Counted from the stretch's first letter, positions 17,954-43,700 are shown. The stretch: 64,000 nucleotides of DNA from a virus (IMGVR_UViG_3300029288_005873:224001-288000); one strand, 5' to 3'. The notes: generated by a model from the letters alone, not told the origin. A program made the numbers and translations.

Positions 17954-18538
17954 CTAAGGTTTTCCAATTGTATCAAAGATTGCTTTAAGCAGAAGGGTAT
18001 TACTGGCTATATGGACTATGCCATCGGAGAGTTCATAGCGGAGCATTCCTTGAGGATCAGCATAAACGGAGATATCCACGAAGGGGAGATTTCTTTGAGC
18101 ACATCCTTGGGAAAGAATGTGATTAGCGAGGATTGTATAGGCGGCACGTTCTTGGTCAGAACCTGCTACGGGGAATTCATCACGGTCAATGCGCAATTTT
18201 GGGGCAGGTGGAACTATGCCAAGGATTGCTGGTTTAGGGGTAAGTTGAGATGCCTTATCCAAATACAGGTCAATCCACTCTTGAAGGAGGGGTTGAGGTT
18301 GTCTTCCTCTATTTTTCACATGGACATCGACCCAACAACGCATGTCTATTTCGCCAAAGCAAAGAAGGAGGGAATCCTCCGGGGCGAATTGTATAGAGGC
18401 GACGGAATCAAGGAGTAGTGTTTCATTAGGGTGTCCTATACGTTTAAGGGTAACTGGACCGAGCCAATGAGTGGTAAAACCTGGAGTTTTTTCAAAGGGG
18501 ATGAAGCAGTGGGAGTCGCCCATTGTATGAATTGTCAT
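17954..18538 (-). CDS. SGNH/GDSL-like hydrolase or acyltransferase
   Basis: N-terminal GDSH, FGEID.R and C-terminal DG.VH. Confidence 0.65.
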   Translation of the reverse strand: MTIHTMGDSHCFIPFEKTPGFTTHWLGPVTLKRIGHPNETLLLDSVASIQFAPEDSLLLCFGEIDMRCWVDVHVKNRGRQPQPLLQEWIDLYLDKASQLTPKPAILGIVPPAPKLRIDRDEFPVAGSDQERAAYTILANHILSQGCAQRNLPFVDISVYADPQGMLRYELSDGIVHIASNTLLLKAIFDTIGKP

Positions 18539-19179
18539 ATTGCCGCCTCCATGGCAATTTTGAGGTTTTGGGGATCAAGGAGGTTGTATAATCCAGCAAG
18601 AGTTGGGATATTATGTATAGAGCAGTAATCATTCCAGCCGGCGAAGTCAGACCAGGCATATACAAAGACAAAGCCGATATTAGCGGATTGGGCAGCCTGA
18701 TGATCTAAGCGGGAATCACCTATATAGAGTGCTGGGTGTTGGACATTGAGTTTACGTAGGATATTGTGTTTAGGTTCAGGGGCACCAAGGATATCATCAA
18801 ACAAGTTAAGAAGACCTTTATGGTCTAGAGCTTCAGATATTTCATTAGGATCCCCTCCCGAGACAACGATCCATGTTGTATTGGGAAGGAGATTTTTAAG
18901 TTGGCGTAATGGGGCGCAGGGAGCGGACAGGAGGGATGCGCGCACATAAGAAGCATAGGAAGCAACGAGGGGTTCTATTGGTTCTTGACTTTTTATGATA
19001 TTACGCAGGAAGTGCTCAAATTTAGCATAGCGCGTCATTCCGCCATTTTGGAGATGGTAGTTAACTAGAGCCTGTGAGGGAACTTTTCCAAAGGGGGCTG
19101 TTGTTTGCCTAAAGGCTTCAGTTTTTAGGGGGTTAGAGTTAAATATAGTTCCATCGCAGTCAAGGATTAAAGTTTTCAC
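18535..19179 (-). CDS. HAD-superfamily phosphatase
   Basis: LDCDGT motif I, VSGG motif II, K...IGDS..D motifs III/IV. Confidence 0.9.
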   Translation of the reverse strand: MKTLILDCDGTIFNSNPLKTEAFRQTTAPFGKVPSQALVNYHLQNGGMTRYAKFEHFLRNIIKSQEPIEPLVASYASYVRASLLSAPCAPLRQLKNLLPNTTWIVVSGGDPNEISEALDHKGLLNLFDDILGAPEPKHNILRKLNVQHPALYIGDSRLDHQAAQSANIGFVFVYAWSDFAGWNDYCSIHNIPTLAGLYNLLDPQNLKIAMEAAI

Positions 19180-19892
19180 AGGCCTCTCCTACGCAGGGCG
19201 GTTTCGGCGATTAGGATATCGTCAAAGGTATCGACTGGGATAGAATCGGAAGACATAGGGATCATATGGACATCCATACCCAATTCAAGGAAGCGGAGTA
19301 TTTCGATATCCTCTATAGATTCCAAAGGTGTTTTGCCCGATTTTGCGAAGATTTCGAGGGAAGTTTTAGGGAAGGCATAGAGGCAGACCTGTCTATGAGC
19401 GCCGGAGAATGAGAGAGTTTTTGTAGTTGGGATAGGGGCACGAGAAGCATAGAGGAGGCGCCCATCTGGGCGCACGACAACCTTTGGCATAGAGGGGCTA
19501 GTGAAAGTTTGTTCAGAAAGGGGACAGAAGCCATTGAGCACTCTATCTGGGTAGAGATCAGATTGTGCGATAAGGGTTAAGAGGTCATTGGGATTAAGCA
19601 AGGGTTCATCGCCTTGGACATTGATACAGCGATCAGCATTAAGAGAATTGAGTGCGAAAGCGACTCTATCTGTTCCTGTAGGGCATTGTGGGGTCATGAT
19701 ATATTGGATACCATAGAGGGCACAGATGCCGGCGATTTTGACGTCATTAGTAGCGACCCAGAGATTTTGTTTAGGCACCACTTTAAGGCATTGGAGACAA
19801 GTTCTAATGATCATAGGGATACCGTTAAGGAGAATTAAGGGTTTCCCCGGCAAACGTGATGAATCGAAGCGGGCTGGGACGATGACGATCAT
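19176..19892 (-). CDS. kdsB: CMP-Kdo synthetase-like cytidylyltransferase
   Basis: PAR..SSRLPGKPL, TGTDR, NVQGDEP, LE..E.IE.LRFLE.G, VDT..D. Confidence 0.9.
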   Translation of the reverse strand: MIVIVPARFDSSRLPGKPLILLNGIPMIIRTCLQCLKVVPKQNLWVATNDVKIAGICALYGIQYIMTPQCPTGTDRVAFALNSLNADRCINVQGDEPLLNPNDLLTLIAQSDLYPDRVLNGFCPLSEQTFTSPSMPKVVVRPDGRLLYASRAPIPTTKTLSFSGAHRQVCLYAFPKTSLEIFAKSGKTPLESIEDIEILRFLELGMDVHMIPMSSDSIPVDTFDDILIAETALRRRGL

Positions 19893-20812
19893 AGGCGATT
19901 CCTATCGAACTGATTAAGCCCATTGAGTTTTGGGAGAATGCGGGCGATATCGGACAATGAGAGTCCTGAACCAATCATTTCATAGACATATGTAGGATGT
20001 ATATTATGAAGGGCAGCCAGGTGATAGATTGGATTCGGTCCCCAGCCCAGTTTTTCTTGGAGGATTGCGAAGCGTTTCATAATAGTAAGAAGGGGTTGGG
20101 TATTCAAGTTAGGGAACAAATCTGGGAGCAATTGTTCTGTTCTTGTATTACCTGGACCGCGTCCCATACCCAAGATTGTACAATCGACAATTGTGTTTTC
20201 GGAAAGAGCTTGAATTGAGTTAGCCAGAGCCAGACCTCTACTATTATGGGCATGGACGCCTATTTTACCTTGCCATTGTGAACGAAGGGCGGACAGGGCA
20301 TTTGAGACATCTTTAGGGGACATACCGCCCAAGCTATCGGCAATATAGATTACAGAGATAGGTAGGGTAGAAAAGAACATAGCAGCATCCGCGAGTTCGG
20401 AATAGGAACGCAGGGAAGCCTGCATAATATTGACCATGATTTCGAGGCCTTTATTATGTAGTTGTTTTATAAGGGGTGCGGCGGTTAGGATTTCATGGTA
20501 ATGGAATGCTATACGCACCACTGAGATGAGGGAATTTTGGGGGAACATAATTTCCAAGCTAGAGGGATTAAGTTCCGAGGCATTCACCATAACGCAGAGT
20601 TTCTTCTGGTTTTTTGGGAGTGTACGGACAAAGTCATCAGTAGCATTAGCACAGCTCGGAAGGACGTTCCTTGGGGTCCGGAAGCCTATTTCCAGGTAAT
20701 CAACTGGGAGGCTATTCATAGCGATGATATAGTCATCGATAAGATCTTTTGGAAAATTCCAGGCATTCTGATAGCCGCCATCTCTAAGGGTACAATCAAG
20801 AATTTCGACCAT
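19889..20812 (-). CDS. DRE-TIM metallolyase (4-hydroxy-2-oxovalerate aldolase-like)
   Basis: LDCTLRDGGY, ADSLG, HAHN..GLA.AN, GMGRGPGN..TE. Confidence 0.88.
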   Translation of the reverse strand: MVEILDCTLRDGGYQNAWNFPKDLIDDYIIAMNSLPVDYLEIGFRTPRNVLPSCANATDDFVRTLPKNQKKLCVMVNASELNPSSLEIMFPQNSLISVVRIAFHYHEILTAAPLIKQLHNKGLEIMVNIMQASLRSYSELADAAMFFSTLPISVIYIADSLGGMSPKDVSNALSALRSQWQGKIGVHAHNSRGLALANSIQALSENTIVDCTILGMGRGPGNTRTEQLLPDLFPNLNTQPLLTIMKRFAILQEKLGWGPNPIYHLAALHNIHPTYVYEMIGSGLSLSDIARILPKLNGLNQFDRNRL

Positions 20813-21397
20813 TTAGGCTCCGTGTAGGATGATTTTTCCCTCTTGGGCGAGGCGTAGAAGGGTTGAAGCCTCGTCCTGGAAACTATGACAGGTTGAAGGT
20901 GGAATAATGTAATGATTCCAATAATGTCTGCGAATTCTTTGGACATTTGTTTCAAACCCAAAGATATGAGGAATGAGACCAGCAGATACACAGACATGGA
21001 TAATTGCCATTCCACTAGTTGGCATTGGGGATGGAGGTAAAGAAAGCGAAGATAAATTCAACAGATAAATCTGATTACTAGGATGTAAGGGATTTTCTTT
21101 AGGATCCCAGGGATAAACGCAAATGCGGCTAGACATCAATCTAGAGGCGAACATATCGTCATCTGGAGGATCAGAAGGTTTACATTTGAAAGTATTAACA
21201 TTCATGACCCTTAGGGTTGTGCGTGATCCGACGGAGGTTTCAAAACCCACAGTTGGTGCTCTATTAAATCTGATTACATCGGTATAGGTATCGATATGAG
21301 GTCCGAACTGTTGATTAAGCAAGATATCGCTAGATCCCACTATAGCTAGATTAGTAGAGAGGACATCTATTTTGAAAGGAAGAATTGATCCGCACAT
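20813..21397 (-). CDS. GT29 sialyltransferase-like glycosyltransferase
   Basis: L-motif AIVGSS..L...FG..ID...DVIRFNRAPT.GFE..VGSRTTLR, S-motif PTSG..........IFGF, motif III HYW and VS-motif H...E. Confidence 0.88.
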   Translation of the reverse strand: MCGSILPFKIDVLSTNLAIVGSSDILLNQQFGPHIDTYTDVIRFNRAPTVGFETSVGSRTTLRVMNVNTFKCKPSDPPDDDMFASRLMSSRICVYPWDPKENPLHPSNQIYLLNLSSLSLPPSPMPTSGMAIIHVCVSAGLIPHIFGFETNVQRIRRHYWNHYIIPPSTCHSFQDEASTLLRLAQEGKIILHGA

Positions 21398-21423
21398 GCC
21401 TTAATATCAACAAATTGATAGTT

Positions 21424-22257
21424 TTAGCTAAACAGCAGGCAACCTTCGAGGCAGAGTTTAGGAGGTTGTTTATTCGCAAAATCTTGGAGAAGTTTAGCAC
21501 GAATAGGACCTTGCCAAATATCTTCAAGGCTTTGTGAGAACAAGTTACCTAGGGGGATAGAGGCGTCATAGTCGTAACAACATAGGACTATGGAGCCGTC
21601 CGCCAGGATTGTACAGACGTCATAGGGGTCACGACAAGAAAGAACCTGATTCAAATCGAATGGAGGGCGTTGGACATGGGGTTGAATAACTGGATTCAAT
21701 TTGAAATGTGGGACTTTAGTTGTACCTGGCACGCCGATAGATTTACAAAAGGCTAGGAATTTGGGAACTTCATGGACGTTATGGGCGAAAACAAGAAACT
21801 GTGCGCCCAATGAAGTAGTCATTTTAGCGGCGGCGTGGTGTTTTTTGAGGATTTTCAAGACATTAATAGCTTTATCGAGTGAGCCACCGATTCTATAAGC
21901 GCCGTAAGTTTCTTGGGTCATTCCATCTAGAGAAACAGAGACGCTAGCACCAGAGACAGCGAGCTTAGCGGCGTCTTCATCAGAAAGACAATTAGCGTTG
22001 GTATGTATGCCTGCGGAAGCAAACTGTAAAGTTCTTGATATTATTGAAAAAATATCTCGATTAAGCATAGGTTCGCCCCAGATATGGAGGGCGACATGTG
22101 AGGCATAGGGAGAGATTTTATTGGCGATAGTATCATATTCGCCGATGGTCATATGTTTTTTAGGAAGTATTGTTTTGCCGCAACCGACGGCACAGAGTGG
22201 GCAGCGCAGGTTGCAGCCGCGCACGGTTTCGACCGAGAAGATTTTAGGAAAGTTCAT
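21424..22257 (-). CDS. Radical SAM protein with SPASM/twitch domain
   Basis: CNLRCPLC, GEP, HTN, SLDG, and C-terminal C..P...I..DG...CC.D...GN.....L..IW...C...C. Confidence 0.9.
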   Translation of the reverse strand: MNFPKIFSVETVRGCNLRCPLCAVGCGKTILPKKHMTIGEYDTIANKISPYASHVALHIWGEPMLNRDIFSIISRTLQFASAGIHTNANCLSDEDAAKLAVSGASVSVSLDGMTQETYGAYRIGGSLDKAINVLKILKKHHAAAKMTTSLGAQFLVFAHNVHEVPKFLAFCKSIGVPGTTKVPHFKLNPVIQPHVQRPPFDLNQVLSCRDPYDVCTILADGSIVLCCYDYDASIPLGNLFSQSLEDIWQGPIRAKLLQDFANKQPPKLCLEGCLLFS

Positions 22258-22799
22258 CTAACCCTCTTCCAGGCGAGTATATTATCGGGGTGACCTGGTC
22301 GTGGATCTATACGCACTTTATATCCGAGGGAAGTTAGGTCTTCTGGGTATACATTCCAGAGGTGACGTTCGAACACGTTATCGTAGCACAAATCCTGTGG
22401 AGCTTCGCCGTTGGGACAACCTAGGACCACGAGTGAACAAGCATTTTCTAGATTAGCGAGAGCTTTTGTAAAATATTCCTTATGGACGTGTTCAGGACCA
22501 TGCCACCAGAGTCCAAGGTCATAGGGAGCCGGCAAAAATGAAGAAACCACATCGCCACAGATTACGGGGACGCCATAGGTATGTTGAATAAATTTGGCGT
22601 TTTCCGGCCAGATTTCGATAACGGCGGTATTCCATCCAAGTTGAATCAAGTCATGGAGCATATATGCTCGTTGGACGGAGGCACCGACATACAGTAGTCT
22701 TTTATCTTGTCCGTTAAGGATTTCTGGAAGCTCAGCAAGGAGCGCCCCTTTTTCTGGAAGGTCCTGTGGTCCCATTGGAACATCATATTGATTTGACAA
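22254..22799 (-). CDS. Class I SAM-dependent methyltransferase-like protein
   Basis: LLYVGA, IEIW, GDV, YD...W.HGPEH. Confidence 0.55.
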   Translation of the reverse strand: MSNQYDVPMGPQDLPEKGALLAELPEILNGQDKRLLYVGASVQRAYMLHDLIQLGWNTAVIEIWPENAKFIQHTYGVPVICGDVVSSFLPAPYDLGLWWHGPEHVHKEYFTKALANLENACSLVVLGCPNGEAPQDLCYDNVFERHLWNVYPEDLTSLGYKVRIDPRPGHPDNILAWKRVR

Positions 22800-22870
22800 G
22801 ATTAACCCTCCTGTCGTCTAGATGTCCTATAATTGATAGTTTTTACTTGGGTGTGTATACACCAAAATTG

Positions 22871-23627
22871 TTATCTACATATATACCAATTACCAGGAGG
22901 AATTTCGATAGGCTCTATTTTGGAATTATTCCCCATTACTGATTGCCAATATAATGGTCCGCCTCCTGATGTAACAAAAACATGGGAATAAATAGGAAGT
23001 AGAGATACAAAAGCAGCAAGTTTAGTTGGACCAGCTTCATCAGCGGCATGCATAGAGATAGCTAGAGAAAGATCATTTGGTGGTGGTTTTAGGATAGGAC
23101 TAGACGAATGCGATATAGGAACGCCGCGCTGACCGAGATACATTCGTTGTAGGGCAGAAAGTTCAGGAAGGTCATGGATTATCCATTGTCCGCGAAAACC
23201 TAAAGAATGAGCAATCCTAGCAAAACTACCATAACCTCCGCCGAATTCGAAAACGAAATTAAAATCAGAAATACGATGACCGGTCATACGTTCTAGAACG
23301 AGCATTTGGTGAGCGTGTCCAATGGCAGTACTAGAAGCGCCTTCTAAATCTATAGATGAAGTAAGACCATCTGCCAGGACAGGAAGCCAGCGAGAGAGCC
23401 AATCTGGATCAGCTTGTAATGGGGGTAAGCGTACCGAATTAGCCTCTTGGTCCAGACCATAGACCGCCGCGACTTATTTCCGGCCATTCCCACCAATTAG
23501 AAATATTGCCAGAAGCTCCTCGGGTACGGATACCTATACAAATATCATTCCAATGATCAAGGGAAGTTTCATGTGGTATTGGTTGTCGCATCTCATCGAC
23601 AAAATTTTGTTCGAATTTATCCATCAA
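22871..23627 (-). pseudogene. Putative sugar O-methyltransferase, apparently frameshifted near 23440-23470
   Basis: FEFGGGYG..AR and DLPE...LQ..YL motifs in 22871..23305. That frame stays open to ~23470 and overlaps the 23439..23627 ORF, which supplies a plausible N-terminus. Confidence 0.55.
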
Positions 23628-23669: not shown

Positions 23670-24389
23670 CTACCCCAGCCCCCAGCGTTTAGAAAGAACA
23701 TCAGCGATCTCTTGAGCAAATTTTGCCCCGGCTTCTAAATCCTTGGATTCGTTGGTTTTAGTACAACGGCATTCTTTGCCACAATCTCCGCCGCCACAAC
23801 AATTCGGCATCGTTGCCTGATCTAATTCCTTTTCTTCACAACAAGAATGGCAGCATTTCTTCTCAAGCGCTTTCCTAAAGGCTTTCTTAAAAACGTTTAT
23901 CATTTCTTTATCGTGAGTAAACTCCTCATCTAGCCATTCATTAGTCTGACAGCTGAATTTTGGACCACAACACTCATTACAATTTTTTCCACAACGATTT
24001 TTACTACAACATGTAAGAGGGAAGAGGGGATCAACTGGATCAAGAAGATCTTGTTCTTCCAACTCTTTAAGGGTTTTTAGGATGGGTTCCTCTGAACTCT
24101 TCTTGGTCAAATCTTTGCGCTTAATAATTCCTTTTTCACCTGAAGCATCAAGGATATGGTTCCAATTAGGATAAGGTAGGTTTGGAATTGAGTTAGGCCA
24201 AACCATAGGATTGAGCTTATCAGCTTGCTGATGAAGCATTGTCGCAAACTCACGCAAATCATCAGCCACCTCTTGAATTGGAACCCGAATAGGCTTAGGG
24301 GGTCGTGGGGGTTCTTTGGTTACGGGAAGCGGACCAACCACGCGGTCGAGAATAGCGTTAACGATTTTTTTCAATAATTCCGTGATCAT
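23670..24389 (-). CDS. Cys-rich hypothetical protein
   Basis: Several CC/CxxxC clusters; N-terminus paralogous to 24393..24746. Confidence 0.6.
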   Translation of the reverse strand: MITELLKKIVNAILDRVVGPLPVTKEPPRPPKPIRVPIQEVADDLREFATMLHQQADKLNPMVWPNSIPNLPYPNWNHILDASGEKGIIKRKDLTKKSSEEPILKTLKELEEQDLLDPVDPLFPLTCCSKNRCGKNCNECCGPKFSCQTNEWLDEEFTHDKEMINVFKKAFRKALEKKCCHSCCEEKELDQATMPNCCGGGDCGKECRCTKTNESKDLEAGAKFAQEIADVLSKRWGLG

Positions 24390-24392
24390 TGA

Positions 24393-24746
24393 TTACTCCT
24401 TGTTTTTTGCGGCCATACATTCTTTGATAAAATACCTCATTTCATCTGGAGACATTTTATCGGCAGAAGTTTTACGCATTTCGAGGATGGTTTTTTTGAT
24501 GTTCTCCATTTGCTCATAAGTTGGAGCGTATTGTTTATAGATTGAGGGCATAACTGCGGCTGGCGGGGGATCGACTTTGTCTGCCAATTCTCTCAACTGA
24601 GTCGCATATCCCTTGGGCCAATAATCTTGAGACATTTCTATTTCTTCTTCGAGGCAGCTTTGTTTGATTTCAGATTTTTCGGGTTGAGGCTCAGCAATAA
24701 AAGCGAGCAATCTCTCTAGGATTTTCTCCAACAATTTCCTGATCAT
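24393..24746 (-). CDS. Hypothetical protein (paralog of the downstream gene N-terminus)
   Basis: MI..LL.KI...L and AT.L...ADK..P are shared. Confidence 0.6.
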   Translation of the reverse strand: MIRKLLEKILERLLAFIAEPQPEKSEIKQSCLEEEIEMSQDYWPKGYATQLRELADKVDPPPAAVMPSIYKQYAPTYEQMENIKKTILEMRKTSADKMSPDEMRYFIKECMAAKNKE

Positions 24747-25014: not shown

Positions 25015-25242
25015 ACTTTTCCTTTCTTATTAGAAGGTCTGAAAGGGCCATCTTTTGATTTCCGGGTTTAGTCCAGATCTTTTTAAGTGTTTCCAAGATT
25101 TTAGATCCAATGGTCATCTTTTCTACCTCCTGTCTATTATATATCTGATTATTGATAGTTGCTAGGGAAATTTTCACAGATTACGGGATTTTTCAAGAGG
25201 GAGATATTTAGATGAAGGAAATGTTTTTGAAGGGGAGTTTTG

Positions 25243-34966: not shown

Positions 34967-35045
34967 TTTCCTCTCCTTTCCCGCAAAATGCGGAGGTAAT
35001 TTGAGAATCAGCAACAATAATGCTTAACTATTGATAGTTTTTATA

Positions 35046-42227: not shown

Positions 42228-43700
42228 TCATAGAATAGCCTGTTTCCTCTTTTGGAAATCATACTTTCCACACGCCATTAGCATGACAAGTGGACAAGTT
42301 TTACGAGCGGCAGCCACCATTTTATCAGCTACATTACGGATGTCCCATTGTGCATGAGAGTCTTGGCGCAGTCTACTAAAGTGATAAAGCTCTCTAGCAT
42401 TCATTTTTACCAAAACACGACGCCTATGGGCTTGCGTCAACACATATGTGGCAGCATCTCGTAGCCCATGTGTTAAAAGTTTTCCATAAAAAACAGAGCT
42501 ACGATCCATTATTTCTTTGAATTTTTGACCAAATCCAGCTTCAAGCACGGTTGGAGGTACTGTAAAACCAAGAGAAATATTATAATCCTGCGGCAAAATA
42601 GTTGCCATTCTATGCCGTTTTAATTGTGCAAAACAGGAAGCAGAAACTATCAATTCAAAACGAAATTCTGCCAATTCGAAAGCCCTTGGCACAGCGTCCC
42701 ATTCCTGCATAGGACCAAATAACGCTTTAAGAATCCTATTTTTCTGTTTGTAATTATTACGCACCCAAATTTTCTCGCATTGTTTAGAATCCATGCCACA
42801 ATGCTCATACAATAGAGCTCCCATAACTTTCTTTTCAGCATCTTTATCCCAATTCAAAAGACATACGGGTTCTTTATTTGGTTTTGTACTGTATTTTGCC
42901 ATATCAAAACTTTCTTCGGACAATTTTCTAAGTTCTGAAACAGCAGTCAATTGTTCAATTGTTGGATCAAGATACCTAAGCAAAGATGGGGTTACATTAC
43001 GCCCCTCATCACGAAGCAACTTAGCTACTGATTTGGCTTCGTCCAGAGGGTGTATAAGCAAACGTTTAATCATATGTTCGAGATTGCGAGCATTACAAGT
43101 CATGCCCAATTGACCCTCGACCGCTAATGATGTAACATACCTTGCGTCTTCTTTCGCCTTTCCTTCAAAAGCTTTTCGCATATCCTTGTCGGCATTTGGA
43201 TTCTTAGCAAGAAGATAGGCAAGGATTCCTTCATATATTTCACAATAAGCAGCATATTGCTCTGCCATCAAAGCTCTAAATTCAACCTCAAAACCAGCTT
43301 CAACAATTTCCCTAGGAACTACAAATTCCTCACCAAGTTGCGTATATCTTTGACTTTTTTCAGTATAGCTACAAAGGCGAGCATGTTCTATAGCTTCAAT
43401 CACTAGACGCGAAACGCCCATAATATCAAAATTGAGAGCCGCATGTTCGGCAATTGACTCATGACCCATACCAAACACTATTTGTTTATTTGAGGCGCGT
43501 GCTTTAGCCACATCTTCTATGGCAGCTGCGCGCAATTCGTCAACCGGTCTTGGATCACGACTTATTCTTGCATATGCGGCTGAAATGGTTTCAGGAGTCA
43601 TAGCATCAGCGCGACTATCAGGACCCCCTTCGGTCATGAAAAATTTAGCATCTTCGAGAATGTCGATGTCGGCATTGAAGCCAGCCAGCTTAATCTTCAT
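42228..43700 (-). CDS. thyX: Flavin-dependent thymidylate synthase, tandem two-domain type
   Basis: GHESIAEH, SYTEKSQRY, EDARY, NAR.L in domain 1; QLKRHR, NARELYH...R....AQWDIR in domain 2. Confidence 0.88.
   Translation of the reverse strand: MKIKLAGFNADIDILEDAKFFMTEGGPDSRADAMTPETISAAYARISRDPRPVDELRAAAIEDVAKARASNKQIVFGMGHESIAEHAALNFDIMGVSRLVIEAIEHARLCSYTEKSQRYTQLGEEFVVPREIVEAGFEVEFRALMAEQYAAYCEIYEGILAYLLAKNPNADKDMRKAFEGKAKEDARYVTSLAVEGQLGMTCNARNLEHMIKRLLIHPLDEAKSVAKLLRDEGRNVTPSLLRYLDPTIEQLTAVSELRKLSEESFDMAKYSTKPNKEPVCLLNWDKDAEKKVMGALLYEHCGMDSKQCEKIWVRNNYKQKNRILKALFGPMQEWDAVPRAFELAEFRFELIVSASCFAQLKRHRMATILPQDYNISLGFTVPPTVLEAGFGQKFKEIMDRSSVFYGKLLTHGLRDAATYVLTQAHRRRVLVKMNARELYHFSRLRQDSHAQWDIRNVADKMVAAARKTCPLVMLMACGKYDFQKRKQAIL

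Follow-up and report, generated by a model that had tools for sequence, protein, structure and literature searches.

The 64,000-nt stretch of viral DNA analysed here (the window) corresponds to positions 224001-288000 of the IMG/VR virus record IMGVR_UViG_3300029288_005873, which is 441,904 bp long and rated complete by CheckV, and which encodes a ribonucleotide reductase, a PhoH/terminase-like ATPase and a thymidylate-synthase-like protein that mark its source as a large phage. Our subject is a module on the minus strand, at window positions 17954-22799, in which a short glycosyltransferase of family GT29 stands next to an aldolase, a cytidylyltransferase and a phosphatase, and which probably encodes a cytoplasmic pathway for making and transferring an acidic sugar. 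In the order of transcription, the genes of the module are as follows:

22254-22799, minus strand: methyltransferase-like protein of 181 amino acids (aa), so called from its language-model neighbours; first gene of the upstream unit
21424-22257, minus strand: radical S-adenosylmethionine (rSAM)/SPASM enzyme of 277 aa (PF04055 and PF13186)
20813-21397, minus strand: soluble mini-GT29 of 194 aa (PF00777), the presumed transferase of a cytidine monophosphate (CMP)-activated ulosonic acid
19889-20812, minus strand: DRE-TIM (HMGL-like) metal-dependent aldolase of the 3dxi subfamily, 307 aa (PF00682), presumed to condense pyruvate with an aldose phosphate
19176-19892, minus strand: KdsB-like CMP-ulosonate synthetase of 238 aa (PF02348)
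18535-19179, minus strand: HAD-IA phosphatase of 214 aa (PF00702/PF13419)
17954-18538, minus strand: SGNH-like hydrolase or acyltransferase of 194 aa, recognised by conserved blocks; last gene of the operon

The close packing of these genes is evident from their junctions, which measure, from 22799 to 17954, -4, 26, 0, -4, -4 and -4 nt; the first is the 4-nt overlap of the 181-aa gene with the rSAM gene, and at the third the TAA stop codon of the GT29 gene directly abuts the ATG of the aldolase gene. An earlier note on this DNA had described tightly coupled genes for a GT29, a DRE-TIM aldolase, a KdsB-like enzyme, a HAD phosphatase, an SGNH protein and an rSAM/SPASM enzyme, and both parts of that description are borne out, the coupling by the junctions and the identities by profiles or conserved motifs, with five families among the module proteins well above the Pfam/NCBIfam cut-offs. 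None of the module proteins has an N-terminal membrane anchor. The module sits at the edge of an AT-richer part of the genome (GC content 0.44-0.46), directly adjoined by an 11-kb GC-rich block (GC content 0.56-0.60), and a blastn search of the region against 50,697 GenBank phages returned zero matches.

A short element recurs upstream of the module genes and elsewhere in the window:

21414-21422, minus strand: ACTATCAAT element, 17 nt upstream of the GT29 start; candidate promoter element
22832-22840, minus strand: ACTATCAAT element, 33 nt upstream of the start at 22799 (methyltransferase-like/rSAM pair)
25151-25159 and 35030-35038, minus strand, and 42646-42654, plus strand: further ACTATCAAT copies

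The five copies compare with 0.7 expected, none of 100 shuffles reached five, and three of those on the minus strand are found 13-33 nt upstream of a start codon on that strand. The element is thus a candidate phage promoter, and its placement upstream of both the GT29 gene and the start at 22799 suggests two transcription units. The shorter motif TATCAAT, which the note had assigned to the GT29 gene, is indeed found 17 nt upstream of its ATG, and it is mildly enriched in the window (23 copies, with 13.6 expected). Scans for generic sigma-70 promoters and for terminators yielded nothing informative.

It is clear from our results that the phage transferase genuinely belongs to family GT29 in its sequence, its motifs and its fold. 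It matches PF00777 at 81.5 bits (cut-off 23; E 8.8e-23) in two stretches that correspond to profile positions 58-111 and 202-271, and a phmmer search matched it to ST3Gal1 and ST6Gal1 via sialylmotif L (E 8e-9). All four sialylmotifs are present, namely L (LAIVGSS...IDxxxxVIRFN...VGSRTT), S (PTSG...FGF), III (HYW) and VS (HxxxxE, with H171 and E176), and they are conserved in alignments of 4 and of 40 sequences; the 40 homologues show no variation at S22, S23, R43, N45, G129, G147, Y159 and H171, and almost none at H158 and E176. The AlphaFold model is of high quality (predicted local distance difference test, pLDDT, 91.9), and Foldseek placed ST8SiaIII, ST6GalNAc2, ST3Gal1 and ST6Gal1 at the top (probability 1.0; template modelling (TM) score for the query 0.54-0.69). 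All 30 matches at E <= 0.001 were GT29 chains, while Maf, GT42 (Cst-I/II) and archaeal MptE gave far weaker E-values. The earlier note, which had listed all four motifs, had tied its reading to membership in GT29, and that membership is upheld by the Pfam match, the motifs and the model.

The phage protein shares with the eukaryotic GT29 enzymes (ST3Gal1, ST6GalNAc2, ST8SiaIII) and the plant protein RCKT1 the Pfam family, the four sialylmotifs, the fold (TM 0.6-0.7) and the His/Glu catalytic motif, but at 194 aa it is well short of their catalytic domain of ~270 aa, its middle region is shortened, stem and signal anchor are absent, and it is cytoplasmic and phage-encoded. It begins just 15 residues ahead of sialylmotif L, and its single hydrophobic stretch is the buried S-motif segment, so that the lack of a membrane anchor remarked on earlier is confirmed. 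The L-motif Cys of the conserved L-S disulfide is replaced by Leu17; type II topology and this disulfide are traits of the Golgi enzymes and not of catalysis. Transfer from a CMP-ulosonic acid donor is what we presume for the mini-GT29 from its genomic association.

That association begins with the gene directly downstream. The aldolase matches PF00682 at 76.8 bits (cut-off 29; E 2e-21), and its best solved relative is 3dxi, a 'putative aldolase' (E 1e-43), followed by 4-hydroxy-2-oxovalerate aldolases (E 1e-14 to 1e-9). Thirteen homologues show no variation in the DRE-TIM motif LDCTLRDGG or in the HxH metal ligands (GVHAHN). Aligned to 1nvm, 4lrs, 8ih7 and 4jn6, the phage enzyme has RDGGY instead of RDG(S/M)H, as does 3dxi, and its scores lie below the 4-hydroxy-2-oxovalerate aldolase cut-offs (NF006049, 101 bits against 229; TIGR03217, 86 against 286), so that neither the catalytic His nor the scores place it with the DmpG/BphI type. 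By family resemblance, the reaction would be the condensation of pyruvate with an aldose phosphate. A literature search on 3dxi and on a route combining such an aldolase with a cytidylyltransferase found nothing relevant.

The next two genes encode enzymes of the kind that would be expected to act on such a product. The cytidylyltransferase, the only one in the whole phage, matches PF02348 (E 2e-31) and solved KdsB/KpsU structures (E 9e-32); among the NCBIfam KdsB models it passes NF003952 (199.6 bits against 193) and falls short of NF009905 (232 against 255) and of the equivalog TIGR00466 (98.7 against 155). The HAD protein matches PF00702 (45.7 bits), PF13419 (42.4 bits) and TIGR01549 (31.3 bits against 23.3), with the nucleophile motif LDCDGT, and its presence argues for a phosphorylated intermediate. 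KdsA, NeuB and SIS/KdsD are absent from the window and from the whole 441.9-kb record, which extends to the entire phage the earlier remark that the window holds no KdsA or NeuB. Differences in signature motifs between the cassette cytidylyltransferases described below and two solved KdsB enzymes were given little weight, as a Bacillus KdsB from a canonical locus also lacks those motifs.

The aldolase also has weaker NCBIfam matches to homocitrate and isopropylmalate synthases, and in phosphonate clusters HMGL-like enzymes are found together with cytidylyltransferases (10.1101/2021.04.07.438883). The DRE-TIM enzyme might on these grounds be a Claisen-type or phosphonate-type synthase, like the phosphonomethylmalate synthase FrbC, with the cytidylyltransferase activating a non-sugar acid. 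We regard this as very improbable. The whole phage has no phosphoenolpyruvate (PEP) mutase, for which the phosphonate reading was rejected; moreover, the best family matches are pyruvate aldolases, the cytidylyltransferase is specifically KdsB-like, and the genomic company of these genes consists of glycan loci, genes for Kdo (3-deoxy-D-manno-octulosonate) and Maf/MptE-like genes.

This company is best seen in bacteria. More than 2,500 relatives of the aldolase were found at E<1e-10, most of them bacterial proteins of 530-538 aa named 'aldolase catalytic domain-containing protein', and their genes form a cassette in which a DRE-TIM aldolase with a fused MptE/Maf-like domain is followed by a KdsB-like cytidylyltransferase and then by a HAD-IA gene (for example L036:7971-11020 and L025:7992-11092). 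Carriers include Proteobacteria, SAR11, Bacillus, Streptomyces and others, the loci L057 and L061 among them. In 80 fetched loci, drawn from at least 592 confirmed genome loci, the order is kept for the aldolase in 76, the cytidylyltransferase in 68 and the HAD gene in 52-53, with junctions of a few nt, and the surroundings are glycan-assembly genes. The phage genes are homologous to those of the cassette and stand in the same order, with 40-47% identity for the aldolase, 55-58% for the cytidylyltransferase and 35-45% for the HAD protein; the bacterial aldolase has a C-terminal MptE-like domain, whereas the phage aldolase lacks it and is abutted on its upstream side by the GT29 gene. No published function for the bacterial cassette was found in the literature. 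In Idiomarina aquatica, an extra gene (L003:9609-10358), which by eye resembles one for an HpcH/HpaI-type aldolase, lies between the aldolase fusion and the cytidylyltransferase gene.

The 200 residues by which the bacterial aldolase is longer are modelled with a pLDDT of 95.3 and matched by Foldseek with probability 1.0 to the MptE-like fold, which is common to SteA, the Maf flagellin glycosyltransferase, ST8SiaIII and the archaeal pyrophosphokinase HPPK. A profile-profile comparison (hhalign) of the mini-GT29 family with this domain found no sequence relation (probability 0.5%), and the two are thus related, as far as the models indicate, at the level of fold only. The Maf (DUF115/MptE-like) transferases of flagellin, which use nonulosonic acids and Kdo, resemble the phage enzyme in having a sialyltransferase-related fold, using CMP-ulosonic acids and being soluble cytoplasmic enzymes that act on proteins, and by this analogy they are likely a working model for the type of acceptor; they differ in having no sequence-level relation to it (hhalign 0.5%), and the phage has no flagellin. 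Papers found on the flagellin island PA1088-PA1091 of strain PAO1 concern a different chemistry.

Evidence for the pairing of GT29 and aldolase comes from two metagenomic proteins (P0006 and P0010), in which an N-terminal GT29 is fused to a C-terminal aldolase; their identity to the two phage proteins is 41% and 47%, and their domain order is the phage gene order. Among 77 viral contigs with a related aldolase, the cytidylyltransferase gene lies immediately downstream in 51, and a GT29-like or C-terminal-domain-like gene lies near the aldolase in 16, in several of them directly upstream; most of these phage pairs of aldolase and cytidylyltransferase have no HAD gene. Taken together, the fusions and the viral and bacterial loci indicate a persistent association of the aldolase with both a KdsB-like enzyme and a protein of sialyltransferase fold, and in this phage it is, as far as gene order and motifs tell, the GT29 that fills the latter role.

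The mini-GT29 family extends well beyond this phage. A profile search of the full library found 126 cluster representatives at E<1e-30, mostly of 190-230 aa, and relatives occur in 469 metagenome stretches, mostly marine. A single-protein search of viral contigs found no close relatives of the GT29, and the alignment-based search found relatives in 33 IMG/VR viral contigs. Only one of the 50,697 GenBank phage records has mini-GT29 genes, that of an uncultured 484-kb phage (L354, LR756508.1:314827-336093) with three or four tandem paralogues and no aldolase, KdsA or cytidylyltransferase gene within 10 kb. The view of GT29 as mainly eukaryotic, repeated in the earlier note, is outdated for this soluble subfamily of ~200 aa, which is numerous in metagenomes and phages. 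GT29-like sequences of marine Proteobacteria such as Idiomarina and Alteromonas were reported in 2018 with no function given (Petit et al., PMC5811610); like the phage GT29 these are uncharacterised prokaryotic homologues with sialylmotifs, and the available part of that report does not describe phage copies, a fusion to an aldolase or the linkage to a biosynthetic cassette. We found no paper on phage GT29 modules; KdsA and KdsB were called a first for a cyanophage in December 2025 (PMC12801897).

The genes around these relatives bear on the donor. The survey of viral neighbourhoods that the note had proposed, run on the 33 contigs, found a CTP_transf_3-type cytidylyltransferase gene within 8 kb of the mini-GT29 gene in 24 and a KdsA gene within the same distance in 14, and one contig (L084) has a row of methyltransferase, unknown, mini-GT29, rSAM/SPASM, SDR, NeuB, DHDPS-type aldolase and cytidylyltransferase genes. 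Most mini-GT29 genes have no aldolase near them, yet genes for CMP-sugar synthesis are present. These neighbours support the view that mini-GT29 enzymes use CMP-ulosonic acids. rSAM/SPASM genes adjoin the mini-GT29 gene in L084, L195, L201/L202 and L205, and the closest relative of the phage GT29 (L194, 52% identity) has directly upstream a 65%-identical homologue of the 181-aa protein, recurrences that give some support for both genes as parts of the module; none of the L194 neighbours has a Pfam match. A metagenomic protein of 409 aa (P0130) is a natural fusion of a mini-GT29 and a class I methyltransferase domain.

Given this evidence, we think that the five translationally coupled genes from 21397 to 17954 probably form a cytoplasmic acidic-sugar pathway, a phage variant of a recurrent module of mini-GT29 and CMP-ulosonic acid genes in which an aldolase replaces KdsA. 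The DRE-TIM aldolase would condense pyruvate with a phosphorylated aldose drawn from central metabolism to a 3-deoxy-2-ulosonic acid phosphate, which the HAD-IA enzyme would dephosphorylate, by analogy with KdsC and the phosphatase of N-acetylneuraminic acid 9-phosphate. The KdsB-like enzyme, assigned to its family by sequence, would then make the CMP-activated sugar from this presumed substrate, and the soluble mini-GT29, whose fold and motifs are those of a sialyltransferase, would pass it from CMP on to an acceptor within the infected cell. The usual supply by KdsA (or NeuB) would thus be replaced by the bacterial cassette of aldolase, cytidylyltransferase and HAD genes, with the GT29 in place of the MptE/Maf-like domain. 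The methyltransferase-like and rSAM/SPASM pair is placed with the pathway more tentatively; these two proteins and the SGNH-like protein would probably tailor the sugar or the acceptor. A self-contained route of aldolase, phosphatase, CMP activation and transfer, as first proposed from the sequence, remains the most economical reading, and it is strengthened by the GT29::aldolase fusions and by the conserved bacterial cassette.

Several points weigh against this pathway. The aldolase belongs to a subfamily without any member of known reaction, 3dxi included, and with the general-base His replaced by Tyr, even its aldol chemistry is something that we infer. The cytidylyltransferase lies above the NF003952 cut-off of the KdsB subfamily, which keeps Kdo among the candidate sugars, and the lack of a HAD gene beside most phage pairs of aldolase and cytidylyltransferase argues that a phosphorylated intermediate is not obligatory. 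The SGNH-like, rSAM and methyltransferase-like genes are tied to the module by position and a few recurrences only. Lastly, the constant pairing of the aldolase with a protein of sialyltransferase fold could mean that this domain works in synthesis and not in transfer. The GT29-like protein, like the MptE-like domain in bacteria, would then assist the aldolase in synthesis, for example as a kinase- or pyrophosphokinase-like, nucleotide-binding or regulatory partner, and transfer would be left to a host enzyme or not take place. Such a role would fit the observation that a domain of this fold nearly always accompanies the aldolase, by fusion or as a neighbour; the fold includes the MptE HPPK and SteA, neither of them a glycosyltransferase, and a kinase step would account for the need for a phosphatase. 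However, the full GT29 signature, including the HY of motif III and the His and Glu of motif VS, is conserved in the 40 homologues, the closest structures are true sialyltransferases and not HPPK, and most mini-GT29 genes occur without an aldolase but with CMP-sugar synthesis genes. A role confined to synthesis is therefore quite improbable in our estimation, and transfer by the mini-GT29 remains the function that we favour.

As to the sugar, a relative of Kdo is more likely than Kdo itself. The score of the cytidylyltransferase is far below the TIGR00466 kdsB equivalog cut-off, and KpsF/KdsD above cut-off is missing in four of the five Gram-positive cassette carriers (one of which is an incomplete metagenome-assembled genome). 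In addition, Bacillus coreaensis has at one locus (L025:1016-11092) a GT4 gene and three MptE-like genes together with a full set of KdsB, KdsA, KdsD and KdsC genes; the aldolase cassette lies beside this canonical Kdo set with a cytidylyltransferase and a HAD gene of its own, an arrangement that argues for two different CMP-sugars. As to chain length, the product may be a C6 acid from glyceraldehyde-3-phosphate, a C7 acid from erythrose-4-phosphate or a C8 acid from ribose-5-phosphate. The score, the carriers without KpsF/KdsD and the Bacillus locus, together with the absence of KdsD from the phage, make it unlikely that the module produces authentic Kdo by a KdsA-independent route, in which pyruvate would be joined to arabinose-5-phosphate from the host, with the HAD protein serving as KdsC, the cytidylyltransferase as KdsB and the mini-GT29 as a Kdo transferase. 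The case for such a route draws on the NF003952 score, on the match to solved KdsB/KpsU, on the KdsA genes near other phage mini-GT29 genes, and on the plant GT29 RCKT1, proposed to be a CMP-Kdo transferase (PMC11288761).

If the sugar is a Kdo relative, the phage pathway would resemble the canonical Kdo pathway (KdsD, KdsA, KdsC, KdsB and transferases) in proceeding through a phosphorylated 3-deoxy-ulosonic acid, dephosphorylation by a HAD enzyme, activation with CTP by a KdsB-family enzyme and transfer from CMP. It differs in having no KdsD or KdsA and a DRE-TIM pyruvate-type aldolase instead of the PEP-dependent KdsA, in a HAD-IA enzyme that is not of the KdsC type, in a transferase of family GT29 and not GT30, GT99 or GT107, and in a sugar that is probably not Kdo.

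We put forward a broader proposal more tentatively, and at somewhat less than even chances: the 3dxi-type aldolase, the KdsB-like enzyme and the HAD protein may constitute an undescribed and widespread route to a CMP-3-deoxy-ulosonic acid other than Kdo, Kdn and the known nonulosonic acids, with the first enzyme coupled to a sialyltransferase-fold user of the product; that user here being a GT29, the soluble GT29 may be a native prokaryotic and viral tool for sugars of this kind. To our knowledge, the established routes to CMP-ulosonic acids (Kdo, sialic, legionaminic and pseudaminic) all begin with a PEP-dependent synthase of the KdsA/NeuB type. With carriers among hundreds of bacterial genomes and numerous phages, a pyruvate-aldolase route would open a new way to the ulosonic-acid surface sugars, which control recognition by phages, by grazers and by the immune system, and the interest of the module lies mainly in this widespread, uncharacterised aldolase route and its coupling to sialyltransferase-fold enzymes. 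A tractable soluble GT29 of 194 aa with a built-in donor pathway also bears on the origin of the animal and plant sialyltransferases and could serve enzymatic glycan synthesis. For phage biology, the question is whether the acidic sugar is placed on the host surface, for superinfection exclusion or receptor masking, or on the phage's own virion. To identify the product of the cassette, Bacillus coreaensis would be well suited as a model organism.

The genes that might tailor the product are less firmly connected. The rSAM/SPASM enzyme is well assigned (PF04055, 47.6 bits, E 2.8e-12; PF13186, 47.9 bits, E 1.7e-12; cluster motif C15-x3-C19-x2-C22); its only solved sequence relative is BtrN (E 1.5e-7), and a search of viral sequences found no close relatives. 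For the SGNH-like protein, Pfam GDSL_2 is matched at only E 0.045, below the cut-off, one homologue carries PF13472, and 16 homologues share the conserved blocks GDS(H), G62, N139 and D172-x3-H176. In 80 other viral loci, genes of its family were not linked to those for an aldolase, a cytidylyltransferase or a GT29, and the 4-nt overlap of its gene with the HAD gene is its sole link to the pathway.

Upstream of the module, two further features bear on its boundary:

22871-23305, minus strand: 144-aa protein with a SAM-binding-like motif (FEFGGGYG), of uncertain membership in the module
23439-23627, minus strand: 62-aa open reading frame (ORF) without any support

The earlier note had counted two methyltransferase-like genes, and for both of them the call is weak. 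The 181-aa protein has zero Pfam or NCBIfam matches, and its feature neighbours in a protein atlas are small phage proteins with Methyltransf_11/25/23 (score 0.96, a lead only). The 144-aa protein scores 21.5 bits against the NanM-type sugar O-methyltransferase TIGR04371, below the cut-off of 44, and no relatives of it were found in viral contigs. Its frame is open for 56 codons 5' of the ATG, far enough to run into the end of the 62-aa ORF, which is read in a different frame, so that 22871-23627 may be a longer gene that is frameshifted or mis-assembled; joining the two as a longer sugar O-methyltransferase gave no higher hidden Markov model score. Methylation or acylation of the sugar, which the note had envisaged, is accordingly a tentative suggestion, given the weak methyltransferase calls and an SGNH family that is unlinked in other viruses.

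Farther upstream, at 23670-24389 and 24393-24746 on the minus strand, two neighbouring genes encode proteins without a family match for either that have in common an N-terminal motif of ~20 aa (MIxxLLxKI...). The 239-aa protein of this pair contains clustered cysteines (CC...C...CC runs), a sequence feature that suggests metal binding.

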